Positions 22,642 to 29,450 of a stretch of 58,516 bases of DNA are shown here, in pieces. The translations under genes and the position numbers were made by a program. The notes beneath the pieces were generated by a model. That model worked only from the letters and a program-made list of their open reading frames with translations, had not been told where the DNA came from and ran no database searches. The stretch lies in assembly GCA_016839605.1 (NCBI GenBank), contig JAEOTX010000078.1:1-58516 (forward strand). The letters are read 5' to 3'. The stretch comes from Candidatus Thorarchaeota archaeon (GTDB taxonomy: Archaea; Asgardarchaeota; Thorarchaeia; Thorarchaeales; Thorarchaeaceae). Within the stretch, counting starts at the first letter, position 1; the number at the start of each line of letters is the position of its first letter.

Positions 22642-23907
22642 ATGAAACCAGACATTGTGCTCTCCCACATCGGTCAGCTAGCTACGCTAGCAGGACATAG
22701 TGATGCTCCGAAGACAGGACAGAGCTTGCAGGAATTGTCTATAATTGAGGATGGGGCTGTTGCCATTAAGGATGGAAGGATCGTTTCGGTTGGCATGACC
22801 AATGAGGTCATGTCTAGCCTCAGCGAAGAGCCCGTTCTACCTCCAATCGAGTTTCCCAATATGCTAGCAATTCCTGGCTTCGTTGATAGCCATACGCATT
22901 TGGTATTCGGAGGTTCAAGAGAGAATGACTTCGCCATGAAGCTTGCTGGCAAAGGCTACATGGAGATACTAGAGGGTGGCGGAGGTATACTAAACACCCT
23001 GAAAGCGACGCGTTTAGCAACTCAAGATGAACTCAGATCCAATGCATTCTCGTATGCCGAGAGTATGCTAACTAGTGGGACTACAACAATCGAGGCTAAG
23101 AGTGGCTATGGGCTTGATGTCGAGAATGAGGTAAAAATGTTACAAGTTGTAGAAACATTGCGAAACAAGCTGCCTTCAGAGTTCGTTTCTACGTTCATGG
23201 GAGCTCATGCGATTCCTCCCGAGTATAAAGACAGGGTTGACAACTATGTCGAACTTGTGATTAATGATATGATTCCAACAATTGCAGAACATAAGCTGGC
23301 CGAGTTTTGTGATGTTTTCTGCGAAGAGGGCGTATTCAGTGTCGAGCAGTCAAGAGAGATTCTCAATGCAGCACAAGACAAGGGTATGAAGCTGAAGGTT
23401 CATGCAGATGAGATAGTTCAACTAGGAGGCGCCGGTCTTGCAGCAGAGGTTGGAGCGATATCTGCAGATCACCTCTTGAGGTCCTCCGATGATGATTTAG
23501 AAGCTATGGCTAAAGCTGGAACCATAGCTACCCTACTTCCTGGGACTGCCTTTAGTCTCGATACTGAGTATGCAAATGCTCGCAAGATGATAGAGATGGA
23601 ACTTCCAGTGGCACTTGCCACAGACTTCAACCCAAATTGCGCAAACGAGTCTATGTTCTTCACAATAGCTCTGGCATGTTACAAGATGAAGATGCATCCT
23701 AGAGAAGCAATCTCAGCGGCTACGATAAACGGAGCACATGCTCTAAGCAGGAGTGAGGTGGTGGGAAGCATAGAACCTGGGAAGCGTGCAGATATCCTGA
23801 TATTGGACTGTCCTAATCCAGAGTATCTTTCTTGGAGGTTCGGGATTAATCTTGTACACACAGTCGTGGTAAATGGACAGGTTGTGCATACCAAGCTTGG
23901 ACCTTAG
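22642..23907 (+). CDS. hutI: Imidazolonepropionase
   Basis: PGFVDSHTH, EAKSGYGL, DVFCEEG, SADHL and LATDFNP motifs. Confidence 0.96.
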   Translation: MKPDIVLSHIGQLATLAGHSDAPKTGQSLQELSIIEDGAVAIKDGRIVSVGMTNEVMSSLSEEPVLPPIEFPNMLAIPGFVDSHTHLVFGGSRENDFAMKLAGKGYMEILEGGGGILNTLKATRLATQDELRSNAFSYAESMLTSGTTTIEAKSGYGLDVENEVKMLQVVETLRNKLPSEFVSTFMGAHAIPPEYKDRVDNYVELVINDMIPTIAEHKLAEFCDVFCEEGVFSVEQSREILNAAQDKGMKLKVHADEIVQLGGAGLAAEVGAISADHLLRSSDDDLEAMAKAGTIATLLPGTAFSLDTEYANARKMIEMELPVALATDFNPNCANESMFFTIALACYKMKMHPREAISAATINGAHALSRSEVVGSIEPGKRADILILDCPNPEYLSWRFGINLVHTVVVNGQVVHTKLGP

Positions 23908-24416: not shown

Positions 24417-25949
24417 CTAACCTACCAAGAGGATCCCTGTAGTCTTCTCAACACTCGCTACAATGCTCTCCGAGTCGATTTTCTCACGGATTCTGTCTAT
24501 GTCAGGATGTAATGGTCGGTCATCATCCAGTTTTGGAACAACCTCTCTAATCACTTCAAACGCCAGTTTCAGAGGTTCAGATGGCTGCAGAGGTAATAAC
24601 AGGCTGAGACCCTGCGCCGCACACATGTATTCTATTGCAATCACGTTCTTCACATTATCAAGTATCTGTGCTGCCTTCCGAGCTGCAATTGCTCCCATGC
24701 TCACATGGTCCTCTTGGTCAGCACTGGTTGGAATCGAATCCACACTGGCAGGATGTGCTAGAACCTTGTTTTCCGATACAAGAGCTGCTGCAGTATATTG
24801 AGCAATCATCAGTCCGGACTCAAGACCGCCTTCAGTTGTTAAGAAGGCAGGTAAACCGCTCAGATTAGGATTAACGAGTCTATTCACCCTTCGTTCGGAG
24901 ATGTTAGCAATCTCAGACAGAGCAATGCCTACGAAGTCCATGGCAAGGGCTATTGGCTGACCGTGGAAATTCCCTCCTGAAACGACATCGTCACTTTTAG
25001 AGAACACGAGAGGGTTGTCAGTTGCTGAATTGATCTCAATCTTGAGTATGTTCTGTGCATACCTTATCGTATCTAGTGATGCACCTAGCACTTGAGGAAT
25101 ACATCGCAATGAATAGGCATCTTGTACAACACCACAGTCTGCATGAGACTGATTGATCTCGCTGTCTCCAAGTATCTCAAGCATCGCACGAGCAACGTCT
25201 GTTTGTCCCTCATGGCGACGTACACTATGAATGCGTTCATCAAGAGCAGCACGGGTTCCTTTTAGTGCCTCAAGACTCATTGATGCAGCAATACATGCAT
25301 CCTTGAGGAGAGTTAGTGCGTCATAGACAACTATCGAGCCAACTGCGCACATTGGTTGAGTTCCATTAATCAGGGCAACGCCCTCTTTTGCCTGCAATAC
25401 TAGAGGCTTGATTCCTGCTCGACTAAGAGCCTTGCCCCCATCGATTCTCTCACCCTTGTAGTATGCTTCGCCCTCACCAATCATGACCAATGCCATATGT
25501 GCTAGTGGAGCAAGATCGCCACTAGAGCCAACTGATCCTTGCTGTGGGACTACAGGAGTCACTCCAGCGTTCAGCATGTCAATGAGTAACTCTATGACAT
25601 CCAATCGTACTCCAGAGAATCCTTTTGCGAGTGCGTTGGCACGTAGAAGCAACATCCCTCTCACTACTTCCATAGAGAATGGAGGTCCGATTCCGGCACT
25701 GTGGCTTCGTATCAGATTGACCTGCAGTTTGGCCAGATCTTTGGATTCTATGCAAACATCAGATAGGTCTCCAAAGCCAGTGTTCACACCATAGATGGTC
25801 CGGCCTTCTTTCACTGCCCTCTCGATAACATCTCTGCTGCTCAAAATACCGTCAAGGGATGTTTCAGATAACTCCACAGACTCATTGTGCCGAGCTACCT
25901 TGACAACATCCTCGATGGTTAAATTAGTGCCATCAATGACCACAGTCAT
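24417..25949 (-). CDS. hutH: Histidine ammonia-lyase
   Basis: YGVNTGFG, GSVGSSGDLAPL (MIO region, SSG), QDAYSLRC, GNFHG and QEDHVSM motifs. Confidence 0.97.
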   Translation of the reverse strand: MTVVIDGTNLTIEDVVKVARHNESVELSETSLDGILSSRDVIERAVKEGRTIYGVNTGFGDLSDVCIESKDLAKLQVNLIRSHSAGIGPPFSMEVVRGMLLLRANALAKGFSGVRLDVIELLIDMLNAGVTPVVPQQGSVGSSGDLAPLAHMALVMIGEGEAYYKGERIDGGKALSRAGIKPLVLQAKEGVALINGTQPMCAVGSIVVYDALTLLKDACIAASMSLEALKGTRAALDERIHSVRRHEGQTDVARAMLEILGDSEINQSHADCGVVQDAYSLRCIPQVLGASLDTIRYAQNILKIEINSATDNPLVFSKSDDVVSGGNFHGQPIALAMDFVGIALSEIANISERRVNRLVNPNLSGLPAFLTTEGGLESGLMIAQYTAAALVSENKVLAHPASVDSIPTSADQEDHVSMGAIAARKAAQILDNVKNVIAIEYMCAAQGLSLLLPLQPSEPLKLAFEVIREVVPKLDDDRPLHPDIDRIREKIDSESIVASVEKTTGILLVG

Positions 25950-26072: not shown

Positions 26073-28127
26073 CTATCGAAGCTTCTTCCTTACAATATCC
26101 TCCACAAGTCCTTCACCAGACACAAATGGCAGAGTTATGTGACCCCTGTTGCCCATCATCCTGTTCCAGTCTACAACAGCCTCAATGGAATGCTCATTTC
26201 TAGCCCATGCACGTCGAGCAACTCCACCCATTACATCCCAATCAAGGCCCAGACGGATAATGCTGTCCACTCTTTCACTCCCATCGAGCACGAGTCCAAA
26301 GCCGCCGTTGATAGCTTTCCCAGTTCCCACACCGCCGCCATTAGACAAGACGCAAAGAGTCATTCCCCGTGCTGCATTTCCAGCCCATATTTGATGAGCC
26401 ATATCACTGGTCACATTGCTGCCATCACGAATGTTCGCAGTTTCTCTAAAGGGAGAGTCAGTGCCGCCCGTGTCATGATGGTCCCGCCCCATCATAACGG
26501 GGCCAATCTTACCGTCACGGACTTTCTTATTGAACTCTAATGCAATCTTGACGCGTCCAGCTGCATCAGCATAGAGAATTCTTGCCTGCGATCCAACCAC
26601 CAGAGCGTTCTTTTCAGCATCTCGTATCCAGACGAAATTATCCCGGTCCTGGCCTCGTCTTTTTGGATCTATGCAAGACAAGGCTACTTTGTCAGTTTCA
26701 ATCAAATCATCATGCTTGCCGCTCAGGCAAACCCAACGAAATGGGCCATAACCATAATCAAAGCAGATGGGACCCATGATGTCCTCCACATAGGAAGGAA
26801 AGATGAAGCCATCATCAGGATTCTTGCCATTCCTGGCAATAGCAGCCACTCCTGCGTCAAATACTGCTTTCATGAAACTGTTGCCATAGTCCCAGAAGAA
26901 GGTGCCTCGCTTTGTCATTTTCCGGATGAACTCGAACTGCAGCTTTAGTGAATTGTCTGCGAGTGATTTGAATTCTCTGCGGTCATTCTTTAGGAGTTCT
27001 CGTCCCTGTTCAAAGGTCAGTCCCTGAGGTGTATATCCACCATTATAGACGTCGTGACATGAGGTCTGATCTGAGGACAGATCAATTGGTATATCGTTGT
27101 CTGAAACATACTTCCAGAGGTCAACGACATTGCCATAATAACCAATAGAAACAGGTTCACCCTTCTCCTTGTATTCTTCAACCCATTCGAAGATTTCAGA
27201 TAAATCGGATGAGTATTTACTGAGCCAGCCTTGATCATGTCTCGTTTCGATGCGGCTCTTGTCAACTTCTGCAATTATGCCAATACCACCGGCAATTTCC
27301 ACAGCCTTAGCTTGAGCACCGCTCATCCCCCCAAGACCTGAGGTCAGGAATGTACGAGCTCGAAGGTCTTGGTCCTCAGGCAGTCCCAAGTACATTCGCC
27401 CTGCATTAAGCAGTGTGATGTAAGTTCCATGGACTATACCCTGTGGGCCGATGTACATCCAACCGCCAGCTGTCATTTTTACGGGGTTTTAGCGAAATGC
27501 TAGATCCTGTCCGTAATTTGTGACGCCGAGGGCGGATGCTTTGTGAAAGTGTTCAGAGGTGTCATACATTCCAATCATGAGCCCATTTGTTGAAGTGACT
27601 CTGGGAGAGTGTTGGGTGCTTGGAAACAATCCAAGTGGGTGGCCAGAACTAACGACAAGCGTCTGCTCATCAGTCATTGCTTCCAAGTACATCATGATGA
27701 GCCTATATTGCATCCAATTCTGACAGACCTGTCCACTCTCGCCGTAGGTGACTAGCTCGTAAGGATAGAGCGCAATATCAAAGTCCAAGTTATTATCAAT
27801 CATGAGCTGGATTGCTCGAGATTCCAAGATACCTTTGTAATCATCAACCGATTTTGCCTTAATTTCTCCAGTTGGTCGATATCGGTACCCATAGATGCGA
27901 CCTCTCTCCAGGAGCTCATCGAGGAACTCCGGAGCGAGTTGCTCATGCACCTCTGATGGGATGTACCGCAGAGCGTTCTTGAGTGCAATCACAGTTTCAG
28001 ATTCGGCAAGATTGAAACCTCTATTTGGGGCTCTCCTGATTCCGGGGTCAAATGTGGGATCAGGAGGTATTTCAGGACCTAATTTAATCCTCATTGACTT
28101 AGACACATCAATCATTGTATGCACCAC
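26073..28127 (-). CDS. hutU: Urocanate hydratase (long eukaryote-like type), predicted complement(join(26073..27478,27509..28127)), 674 aa after removing a 30-nt intron
   Basis: The 212-aa and 467-aa ORFs are in the same frame; motifs PYELVTYG, SGHPLGLF, YGQ|MTAG, GLGGMSGAQ, SDQTSCH, WDYGN and GRDHHD; the insert carries an in-frame TAA. Confidence 0.93.
27479..27508 (-). other. Putative bulge-helix-bulge (BHB) archaeal-type intron in hutU mRNA
   Basis: AUU-ACGG-[AC^A]-GG...CC-CCGU-[AA^A]-AAU forms hBHBh'; excision gives UAC GGA CAA AUG ACA GCU GGC (YGQMTAG). Confidence 0.85.
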
Positions 28128-28327
28128 TCATGATGAAATAGATTCAGAAACTGTCAGCATAAAACGCTTGTCTTGAATAGATTGCCTTCAGTAACCATCA
28201 TGAAGAACTATGCATCTTTGACTTCCTACGCGTGAGAAAGTCATCAATTGAGAGATGCCATCTTGTTTGCTCAATACATGCCAAAATCCATATCTCCAAA
28301 ATGATATATTAGATAATTGAAGTTTCG

Positions 28328-29215
28328 ATGAATCGATACAAGCCTACAAGATGCATCCTTATTTTGTTCATACTAGTGGTTGCTGTGGTCTGGCTGCAGA
28401 GAACACCTCATGCTGAGGCGGCAACATACACAGTGTCATATAGTACCGGAATCGTGTCACCAGACCATTCCAATGTGAGTACGGATATGGCAGATGTCAA
28501 CATCTCGATTGTTTCTGAAAGGATGAATGAGGTGAACTTCACTCACAATGTCACAATTGGCTATGCAATAAACGTCAGAAATGCAAGGGAACAACATGCT
28601 AGCATCCTTCTAGCTTATACTGCGATTTCGCAAGGAGTCGACATTACTGCCCTCTCTTTCGAATGTGGAATGGAAGGAGAGGAACAAAACTACACTTTAG
28701 ATTCATATCAATCAACGAGCCTCCCCGGTACATACGAACAATGGGCTGCTGAAGCTTCTGGTTTTCACATTCTAAATATTACCCTGGAAGGATATACAAA
28801 TGCACTTGTGAGTATTGATGTGCGATTTCAGGTCTGGACATCGGCAGATTATTTCAATCTCAAGTTCGCTATGGGGAGCTCGTTACCTTGGGGTGACTCG
28901 GCCTTCCAAGACATGAAGATATCAGTTCTTAATGCAACAGCGTTTCATAGTATTGATTTCGAACCAAAAGAAACTCTTAATGTAATCAGATCTGCAATAG
29001 ATACCACCGGTACTTGGCACTTTAACATGAGCAATTTCAGTGAAGACTTCGTAGGGGTGACGCTGCAGCAAAACGTCTACATGCCACCTGGATACAATCC
29101 AACAGTTCCAGCCGCACTCATTATCATGACAATATTCCTTGTAGGTTCATATATACTGTGGAAGTACACCAGGACCAGGGACCTCGGACACAGGAACGAA
29201 CCTTTAGTAGAATAG
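28328..29215 (+). CDS. Secreted / membrane-anchored surface protein
   Basis: N-terminal signal-like segment, many N-x-S/T sequons, C-terminal TM helix. Confidence 0.7.
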   Translation: MNRYKPTRCILILFILVVAVVWLQRTPHAEAATYTVSYSTGIVSPDHSNVSTDMADVNISIVSERMNEVNFTHNVTIGYAINVRNAREQHASILLAYTAISQGVDITALSFECGMEGEEQNYTLDSYQSTSLPGTYEQWAAEASGFHILNITLEGYTNALVSIDVRFQVWTSADYFNLKFAMGSSLPWGDSAFQDMKISVLNATAFHSIDFEPKETLNVIRSAIDTTGTWHFNMSNFSEDFVGVTLQQNVYMPPGYNPTVPAALIIMTIFLVGSYILWKYTRTRDLGHRNEPLVE

Positions 29216-29450
29216 GTGCAAACGGTATGCACTATTAAGACATTCAGCTCAACATTACAGATGTCTAAAATGGCTAAATCGAATGCATGAACCACTCCAT
29301 GAATAGAGAGCACGGTTCCTATAGTATTTTCATATCATGAACAAGACAAGCGATATGTCGTTCCTTGAGGTGCCAAAGAACGACCTTAGGTTCCGCTTAA
29401 AAGAACTGCATGAGAGGATTGTTACTGCAATCAACTGAAATTCTCCGGGA

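Follow-up and report, generated by a model that had tools for sequence, protein, structure and literature searches.

A very probable bulge-helix-bulge intron in the coding message of a Thorarchaeota urocanase gene

The interrupted hutU gene and its RNA fold

The window analysed here, a contig of 58,516 nucleotides (nt) from a Candidatus Thorarchaeota archaeon, a lineage that belongs to Promethearchaeati, the Asgard group, carries on its minus strand the urocanase gene hutU in the form of two open reading frames (ORFs) lying in the same frame. The first (27489..28127, 212 aa) matched Urocanase_N in Pfam (E 3.3e-43), and the second (26073..27476, 467 aa) matched Urocanase and Urocanase_C (E 4.4e-78 and 1.6e-74, respectively). 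They are interrupted by an insert of 30 nt (27508-27479, minus strand), which holds an in-frame UAA (27491-27489) and falls between the Gln and the Met of the motif NYGQ|MTAGGW. We consider it very probable that these 30 nt are a bulge-helix-bulge (BHB) intron within the coding part of the hutU mRNA, because the shape known from tRNA introns, rare in a protein-coding message, is kept in relatives.

A previous, sequence-only reading of the window had proposed that a 30-nt insert with an in-frame UAA splits the motif YGQMTAG, and that its removal restores Gly-Gln-Met and a 674-aa ORF. Its coordinates and the letters of the insert were reproduced exactly, and the joined exons counted to 619 + 1403 nt, that is, 674 codons from the GTG at 28127, although the start codon is uncertain (GTG at 28127 or ATG at 28115; the public gene call P0001 starts 4 codons later). 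When aligned to the solved urocanase 6uek_A, exon 1 ended at residue 209 and exon 2 began at residue 210, and therefore the insert is the only part of hutU that is out of place. We delimited exon 1 (Urocanase_N) as 27509..28127, ending after the first base of the Gln codon; the intron as 27479..27508, its limits set by cutting each bulge after its second nucleotide; and exon 2, which in Pfam comprises the Rossmann-like and C-terminal domains of urocanase and includes the stop codon, as 26073..27478. The Thor-type urocanase is a long form of ~675 aa, closest to the 681-aa solved enzyme, and its exon 2 is only 35-38% identical to hutU of several other families in the phylum.

All the base pairs listed in the sequence-only reading for a helix-BHB-helix (hBHBh') motif were found at their positions. 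The central helix is formed by ACGG in the exon (27511..27514) and CCGU in the intron (27481..27484), with 4 of 4 standard pairs. It is flanked by two 3-nt bulges on opposite strands, ACA on the 5' side (27508..27510, with the cut between 27509 and 27508) and AAA on the 3' side (27478..27480, with the cut between 27479 and 27478), the middle base of the latter varying among A, G, C and U in different genomes. The outer helix h pairs AUU (27515..27517) with AAU (27475-27477) and, on the intron side, helix h' and its hairpin (27485..27507) comprise the closing pairs GG/CC (27507-06 with 27486-85) and an inner hairpin, UAGC-AUUUC-GCUA, with its stem at 27502-27499 and 27493-27490 and its loop at 27498-27494. 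In the window the motif thus has h = 3 and h' = 2, at least two pairs in each flanking helix, followed by the 4-bp hairpin.

In-place mononucleotide shuffling of the insert produced an hBHBh' at this boundary in only 179 of 200,000 trials (~0.09%), and the motif is not due to chance. Free minimum free energy (MFE) folding of 27465-27530 (minus strand) recovered the 5' bulge, the central helix and both inner helices, with an energy of -19.9 kcal/mol and a z of -3.72; none of 200 shuffles folded equally well. In the 3.08-Mb genome the insert is present in a single copy, since blastn-short with 27472-27524 returned only the self-match (the next match was 14 nt long, E 0.39), so it does not belong to a repeat family of palindromic or miniature mobile elements.

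Same-site inserts and constraint in relatives

In family f1, which includes the genome of the window (G000), 81 of the 86 genomes have this hutU; 75 loci were examined, 72 of which span the junction. An insert at exactly this base was present in 8 of those 72 loci (G000, G003, G023, G017, G092, G056, G057 and G094), representing five genera, and a ninth was found in G278, of family f9, as the sole interrupted hutU among 81 hutU-bearing genomes (of 135). A short open frame in G312 was rejected as an interruption because it corresponded to a contig end. Eight of the nine inserts are 30 nt long, each with an in-frame stop, and the one in G003 is 29 nt long and shifts the frame. An assembly or sequencing artefact could be suspected, given that the genome is a fragmented archaeal metagenome bin (80% complete, 259 contigs, 4.6% contamination), that its hutU is a mosaic when compared with a sister species, and that contigs of other bins break at this spot. 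Nevertheless, nine separately assembled genomes harbour diverged, structurally equivalent inserts at the same base, and three sources (NCBI, Logan and JGI) list the exon-1 peptide together with the tail that the intron encodes, so that we give an artefact next to no probability.

The sequence-only reading had pointed to hutU of related genomes, to the presence or absence of the insert and to compensatory changes in ACGG/CCGU, as the place where its proposal could be checked. There, in addition to the nine genomes with an insert, the central pair C-G was found replaced by U-A in 4 of the nine, a synonymous C to U change in the Tyr codon of the exon being matched by a G to A change in the intron. 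Moreover, in the alignment of the nine site-1 sequences (A2), 94.4% of the 143 structure cells pair and 7 of the 16 pairs have changed on both sides. The covariation score was 0.479 versus 0.219 for shuffled alignments, none of which reached it in 500 trials, and pairing fell to 36-43% in slid controls in which the 3' partners were moved by 1-3 columns. The closing GG/CC became CA/UG in 3 genomes, and 6 of the 9 pairs of intron helix h', which has 4-10 pairs in the other genomes, have changed on both sides. The central helix has 4 of 4 standard pairs in six genomes and 3 of 4 in three. The outer helix AUU/AAU can pair in all nine intron-bearing genomes, yet it can also do so in 32 of 60 intron-less alleles.

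RNAalifold independently found the central and inner helices and, outside them, a long helix between the exons. In the window this extended exon-exon helix pairs 27521..27532 in exon 1 with 27463..27475 in exon 2, the latter strand lying in the codons of MTAGG. Its 10 pairs are all present in 8 of the 9 intron-bearing alleles, in contrast to a mean of 6.7, and never 10, in the 60 intron-less alleles. Likewise, identity over the final 30 nt of exon 1 is 85.3% among the nine intron-bearing alleles and 64.6% among the 60 intron-less ones, whereas further upstream in exon 1 the corresponding values are 68.8% and 72%. Since the exon is constrained only where the intron exists, the constraint points to RNA structure rather than to shared descent.

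These data also bear on whether hutU might be a pseudogene, with the hairpin as the relic of a small insertion or the footprint of an element. The in-frame stop, the patchy distribution among relatives and the hutU of G060, with a plain 1-nt frameshift, could be taken in its favour. However, comparison of G017 and G092, which share an identical intron, gave a ratio of nonsynonymous to synonymous substitution rates (dN/dS) of 0.038 at a dS of 0.93 over 665 codons, and intron-bearing hutU is under strong purifying selection. Besides, no further stops or frameshifts were found in either exon of the window's hutU (674 codons), the helices are kept by compensatory changes, the exon bases beside the insert are more conserved, not less, and the element, being single copy, is not a repeat family. 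Decay of the gene is thus a highly improbable explanation. As for G060 itself (L033:240-360(+)), the 1-nt insertion, ~40 codons upstream of site 1, is no intron but stems from a sequencing error or marks a real pseudogene.

Regarding the stop codon, it is kept in all 8 in-frame site-1 introns (A2 columns 42-44, window 27491-27489). In the 7 such introns of family f1 it stands at the same place with different letters (UAA, UGA or UAG), within the covarying stem. UGG was never seen at this position, which is not significant given the few sequences. A pattern scan of the genome contigs returned 6 matches, all of them intron-bearing genomes already in the set or a twin of one, and the single match of the metagenome-contig scan (L044) was spurious.

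Splice sites, a second insertion site and the splicing model

A second site of insertion was found in hutU ~80 codons upstream, inside ELVTYGE|SGQ, in four genomes of three genera: G012 (L009:3100-3230(-)), G101 (L036:150-270(+)), G099 (L041:140-260(+)) and G063 (L035:470-570(-)). With lengths of 31-32 nt, these inserts shift the frame in every case, and their removal by the canonical cut rule restores Glu in all four. The cut is again preceded in the exon by UUACGGA, a 7-nt motif common to both sites, and the inner hairpins are strong. Some hairpin loops recur: AUUUC in G000 (site 1) and G063 (site 2), AUUCU in G056 (site 1) and G012 (site 2), and AGCUC in five site-1 introns. Such recurrence may reflect a shared origin or a function of the loop.

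The tRNA-splicing endonuclease EndA cuts each bulge after its second nucleotide. Cutting in silico at this position produced Gly-Gln-Met in 9 of 9 site-1 inserts. A cut one base earlier gave Lys, Glu or a stop in 6 of the 9 and failed in 2 of the 4 inserts at the second site, and a cut one base later failed in G278, which gave Leu, and in G063, which gave Val. The conserved residue was restored in all 13 cases from both sites by no cut other than that after bulge nucleotide 2. In four of the nine site-1 genomes the unspliced codon before the gap encodes His or Leu, so that Gln exists there only after splicing. Because they shift the frame, the inserts of 29, 31 and 32 nt cannot be read by translation; together with the stops, they rule out stop-codon readthrough and frameshifting. 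Group I or II introns and inteins were also ruled out, 30 nt being far too small.

The same junctions allow two further explanations to be weighed. Exon 2 begins exactly with ATG and public gene callers call two proteins, which would suit an enzyme split into two separately translated ORFs, the second starting at the AUG of QMTAG and the hairpin being intercistronic. Yet the ATG would be present anyway, because the Met is conserved in all urocanases, and none of the 9 inserts shows a Shine-Dalgarno-like run of purines in its 3' part. In addition, with the second-site inserts the junction has no start codon, the break falls within a conserved motif at the centre of a domain junction, and neither the kept BHB geometry nor the exon-exon helix would be explained. 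We therefore regard a split enzyme as most unlikely. The other explanation is translational bypassing, as in gene 60 of phage T4 and the 'byp' elements of yeast mitochondria, with ribosomes hopping over the structured 30-nt gap. The gap is indeed short and structured, with a stop soon after the take-off region, and its length need not be a multiple of three. Bypassing is expected to use matched take-off and landing codons, however, and the codons before the gap and before the AUG are identical in just one of the nine genomes (G057, CAG/CAG). Nor would it yield Gln in 4 of the 9, because there the codon before the gap encodes His or Leu, and a two-bulge geometry with a covarying exon-intron central helix is not a feature of bypass elements. 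This explanation also has a very small probability.

Both enzymes required for an intron of the BHB type are encoded in the genome: EndA (215 aa, with the N and C Pfam domains, at G000:C93) and RtcB (G000:C192, 592.7 bits). According to the accessible part of PMC5829648, Asgard EndA is an (alpha-beta)2-type enzyme with an L1 loop, which has been linked to a broad substrate range. ARAGORN flagged introns in 14 of the 27 tRNA genes; four of those calls, of 1200, 689, 1414 and 213 nt (in C106, C108, C120 and C205 of G000, respectively), may be false or correspond to large inserts. No likeness of the hutU insert to tRNA introns was seen by eye among part of the genome's tRNA gene sequences.

According to the model that we favour, exon and intron bases of the hutU transcript would fold into a helix, a 3-nt bulge, a 4-bp helix, a second 3-nt bulge and a helix, a fold that would be braced by an intron hairpin on the scale of 9 pairs and by the longer exon-exon helix. 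EndA would then cut after the second nucleotide of each bulge, and RtcB would ligate the exons to give Gly-Gln-Met and a urocanase of ~674 aa, releasing a 30-nt intron that would probably be circularised. Unspliced message would stop at the UAA of the intron and give only a 212-aa N-terminal fragment. If this is true, HutU synthesis would depend on the tRNA-splicing machinery, a consequence of the model and not a finding. An mRNA intron in an Asgard metabolic gene, as the sequence-only reading had put it, is in agreement with the motif, the covariation, the cut rule, the purifying selection and the presence of EndA and RtcB, from which we infer that cleavage and ligation take place and that these two enzymes carry them out.

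Several observations weigh against this interpretation. The 3' bulge is the weaker half of the motif, because unconstrained folds favour a fifth or sixth central pair and draw an internal loop there and not a clean 3-nt bulge with the AUU/AAU helix; the free MFE fold prefers a 6-bp central helix and another outer pairing on the 3' side. As the outer pairs never covary, the clean-bulge and internal-loop versions are inseparable. The outermost central pair is A.C or A.G in 3 of the 9 site-1 introns and, at the second site, the central helix has 3 of 4 standard pairs in G012 and G063 and 2 of 4 in G099 and G101, whose inserts are identical; the second-site inserts are relaxed BHB motifs. A second (beta) subunit of EndA was not found, even at E <= 10, in this 80%-complete genome. 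Finally, a strict motif scan at the ARAGORN boundaries, with the same product required, recovered none of 10 short tRNA introns, although those boundaries are themselves doubtful. Re-calling the tRNAs after in-silico splicing gave 54, 55 and 57 calls for cuts after nucleotides 1, 2 and 3, respectively, numbers too alike to separate the three.

We also scanned the whole of G000 for strict hBHBh' motifs that, once removed, would fuse two open frames of >=80 codons. Among 2394 matches, 1537 had abutting frames and 274 had introns of <=60 nt; nearly all were ordinary neighbours joined by chance motifs, so the scan is unspecific without a homology test. When limited to the hutU-type central helix it returned 5 matches, of which only hutU was credible. 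A match in C179 was rejected as a split gene, being a continuous gene beside a non-coding frame, and so was one in C256, which has a 10-mer in common with the intron and shows a normal stop followed by a normal start.

Distribution, history and biological meaning

In the window, hutU is directly followed downstream by hutH (24417..25949, minus strand; aromatic amino acid lyase family, Pfam E 8.5e-203), and further on lies an amidohydrolase (22642..23907, plus strand), a candidate imidazolonepropionase (hutI) whose role is suggested by its neighbourhood only. A DtxR-type regulator is also found near hutU and hutH. Two overlapping ORF pairs (20081-20779/20724-21323 and 17881-18372/18347-18982) were considered as other split genes of the window and discarded, the members of each pair belonging to different families.

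In a tree of the hutU protein, intron-bearing genes adjoin intron-less sisters; a minimum of 7 changes of intron state is needed on the exon-2 tree and of 5 on the exon-1 tree. Among Thor-type hutU genes the intron is an old feature with a patchy distribution. Between G000 and its sister species G001, exon 2 is 92-99% identical (dS 0.18) whereas exon 1 is 55-80% identical (dS 1.77). The divergent tract extends over 27400..29431, its low boundary being approximate; both of its flanks are 92-99% identical, and identity is back to 96% beyond 29431. Within it lie the intron, the whole of exon 1, ~25-75 nt of exon 2 and an additional, membrane-like ORF of 295 aa (28328-29215, plus strand) that has no counterpart in G001 and gave no Pfam match. 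The exon-1 tree places G000 together with G003, the second genome of its genus with the intron (Shimodaira-Hasegawa-like approximate likelihood ratio test 92, not starred). A similar excess of exon-1 over exon-2 divergence occurs in G056/G052 and G094/G093 and, for site 2, in G012/G007. Our reading of the data is that the intron moves with the 5' exon or the flanking exon sequence by homologous recombination. Alternatively, and for G000 alone, the mosaic could result from a chimeric contig join, a further point against the case made from the window; such a join would affect the assignment of the gene to a genome but leave the intron itself in place.

The splice junction coincides exactly with contig ends in two other bins: the ends of C117 (L037/L103) and C34 (L106) in G089 and the start of C79 (L043/L104) in G064. 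The two G089 contigs overlap by ~55 nt from the first base of exon 2, and one of them has an intron-less junction. In G014 and G090, contigs end within ~30 nt of the splice junction. Contig ends at the junction suggest branching of the assembly graph caused by mixed populations with and without the intron.

An exon-1 search of 5.8 billion proteins, with lengths of 116-371 aa, returned 2447 matches at E <= 1e-20, and among the best 120 of these we inspected the 47 proteins of <=230 aa. Of these 47 short N-terminal urocanase fragments, 34 have their stop no more than six residues past NYG and carry varied tails; 9 continue into MTAGG as contig-end partials, and 4 end otherwise. Several fragments come from contigs of 15 kb to 1 Mb and are thus not cut by contig ends, and the source records name the fragments 'urocanate hydratase, partial'. 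Because they are known as proteins and not as DNA, the 34 fragments support prevalence only, not structure; on this basis the hutU intron looks widespread and overlooked. One of the proteins, P0063 (215 aa), carries 10 extra residues in frame at site 2 and ends 2 residues past NYG at site 1, and appears to derive from one gene with both introns.

It is possible, though on balance we doubt it, that all these inserts are members of one mobile family of BHB mini-introns colonising coding sequence in Thor-type Asgard archaea. Leads in this direction are the UUACGGA before the cut at both sites, the hairpin loops that recur between sites and the apparent double insert of P0063, together with the location of the intron at the edge of recombination tracts in at least 3 sister-species pairs and its occurrence in two families with nearly identical flanking exon bases. 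If this were true, the introns would pass from allele to allele, lineage to lineage and site to site through recombination with intron-bearing alleles, and perhaps also through EndA and RtcB acting in reverse, with subsequent reverse transcription. Histidine catabolism could then be gated by how efficiently the intron is spliced, and protein-coding BHB introns would be a regular, overlooked part of Asgard gene structure.

The hutU intron belongs to a known, very rare kind of archaeal mRNA intron, that of cbf5, and is unusual for the kind in its two sites, its polymorphism tied to recombination and its added exon-exon helix. A cbf5 pre-mRNA intron of Crenarchaeota was reportedly described by Watanabe in 2002. 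As far as the accessible text of Yokobori 2009 (PMC2738675) goes, cbf5 of Crenarchaeota likewise has a BHB-type intron that interrupts the frame in the coding region of its mRNA, with removal by the tRNA-splicing endonuclease presumed, a patchy distribution with lineage-specific loss and a host with a hetero-oligomeric EndA. In contrast, hutU encodes a catabolic enzyme and not an RNA-modification enzyme, its host is a Thor-type Asgard archaeon and not a crenarchaeon, it has two insertion sites and the additional helix between exons, and its intron, which is known from sequence alone, is polymorphic between sister species and tied to recombination tracts. The HVO_1309 mRNA of Haloferax volcanii is another case in which the splicing endonuclease acts on an mRNA and not on tRNA or rRNA; its BHB intron lies in the 5' untranslated region (UTR), and cbf5 is given as the only other case in the portion available of PMC7714728. 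That intron is in an untranslated leader and was cut in vivo and in vitro, whereas the hutU intron is coding, would require precise removal and was recognised from sequence.

The tRNA genes of Asgard archaea are also known for BHB introns, with repeated gains and non-canonical variants, as described in the accessible parts of PMC11291895 and of the preprint 10.64898/2026.10.13.758758. They resemble the hutU intron in the 4-bp helix, the two 3-nt bulges, the flanking helices and the same presumed enzymes, but they concern tRNA genes only; the word 'mRNA' is absent from the preprint, as far as its text was available. In the literature searched, with subscription journals and supplements outside its scope, we found no report of the hutU intron or of any Asgard mRNA BHB intron.

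A more distant parallel is the unconventional splicing of eukaryotic HAC1/XBP1 mRNA, with a cut by IRE1 and an RtcB-type ligation. There too a short intron of a coding mRNA is removed by a protein endonuclease that reads stem-loop geometry and by an RtcB-family ligase, with a change of frame or product; the differences are that the endonuclease is IRE1 and not EndA, that the recognition motif is another one and that the process is regulated by stress. Any evolutionary link between the hutU intron and HAC1/XBP1 splicing is speculation. XBP1 and RtcB are both mentioned in the part of PMC8718801 that was available.

For more than 20 years, introns of the tRNA-splicing type in protein-coding genes have been known essentially from cbf5, plus the 5'-UTR case of Haloferax (PMC7714728, as far as its available portion shows). 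hutU would be the second coding host gene, of a quite different function, and its host lineage belongs to the archaeal group closest to eukaryotes, in which tRNA introns were already known to be unusually abundant. With two sites, sister species with and without the intron, frame-shifting and in-frame variants and a signature in the exons, it would offer a comparative system for the gain, loss and tolerance of introns. Because such hutU genes are given as truncated or 'partial' by gene callers and in public records, histidine degradation in Thor-type archaea may be wrongly scored as broken, and the same blind spot of annotation probably hides other split genes.

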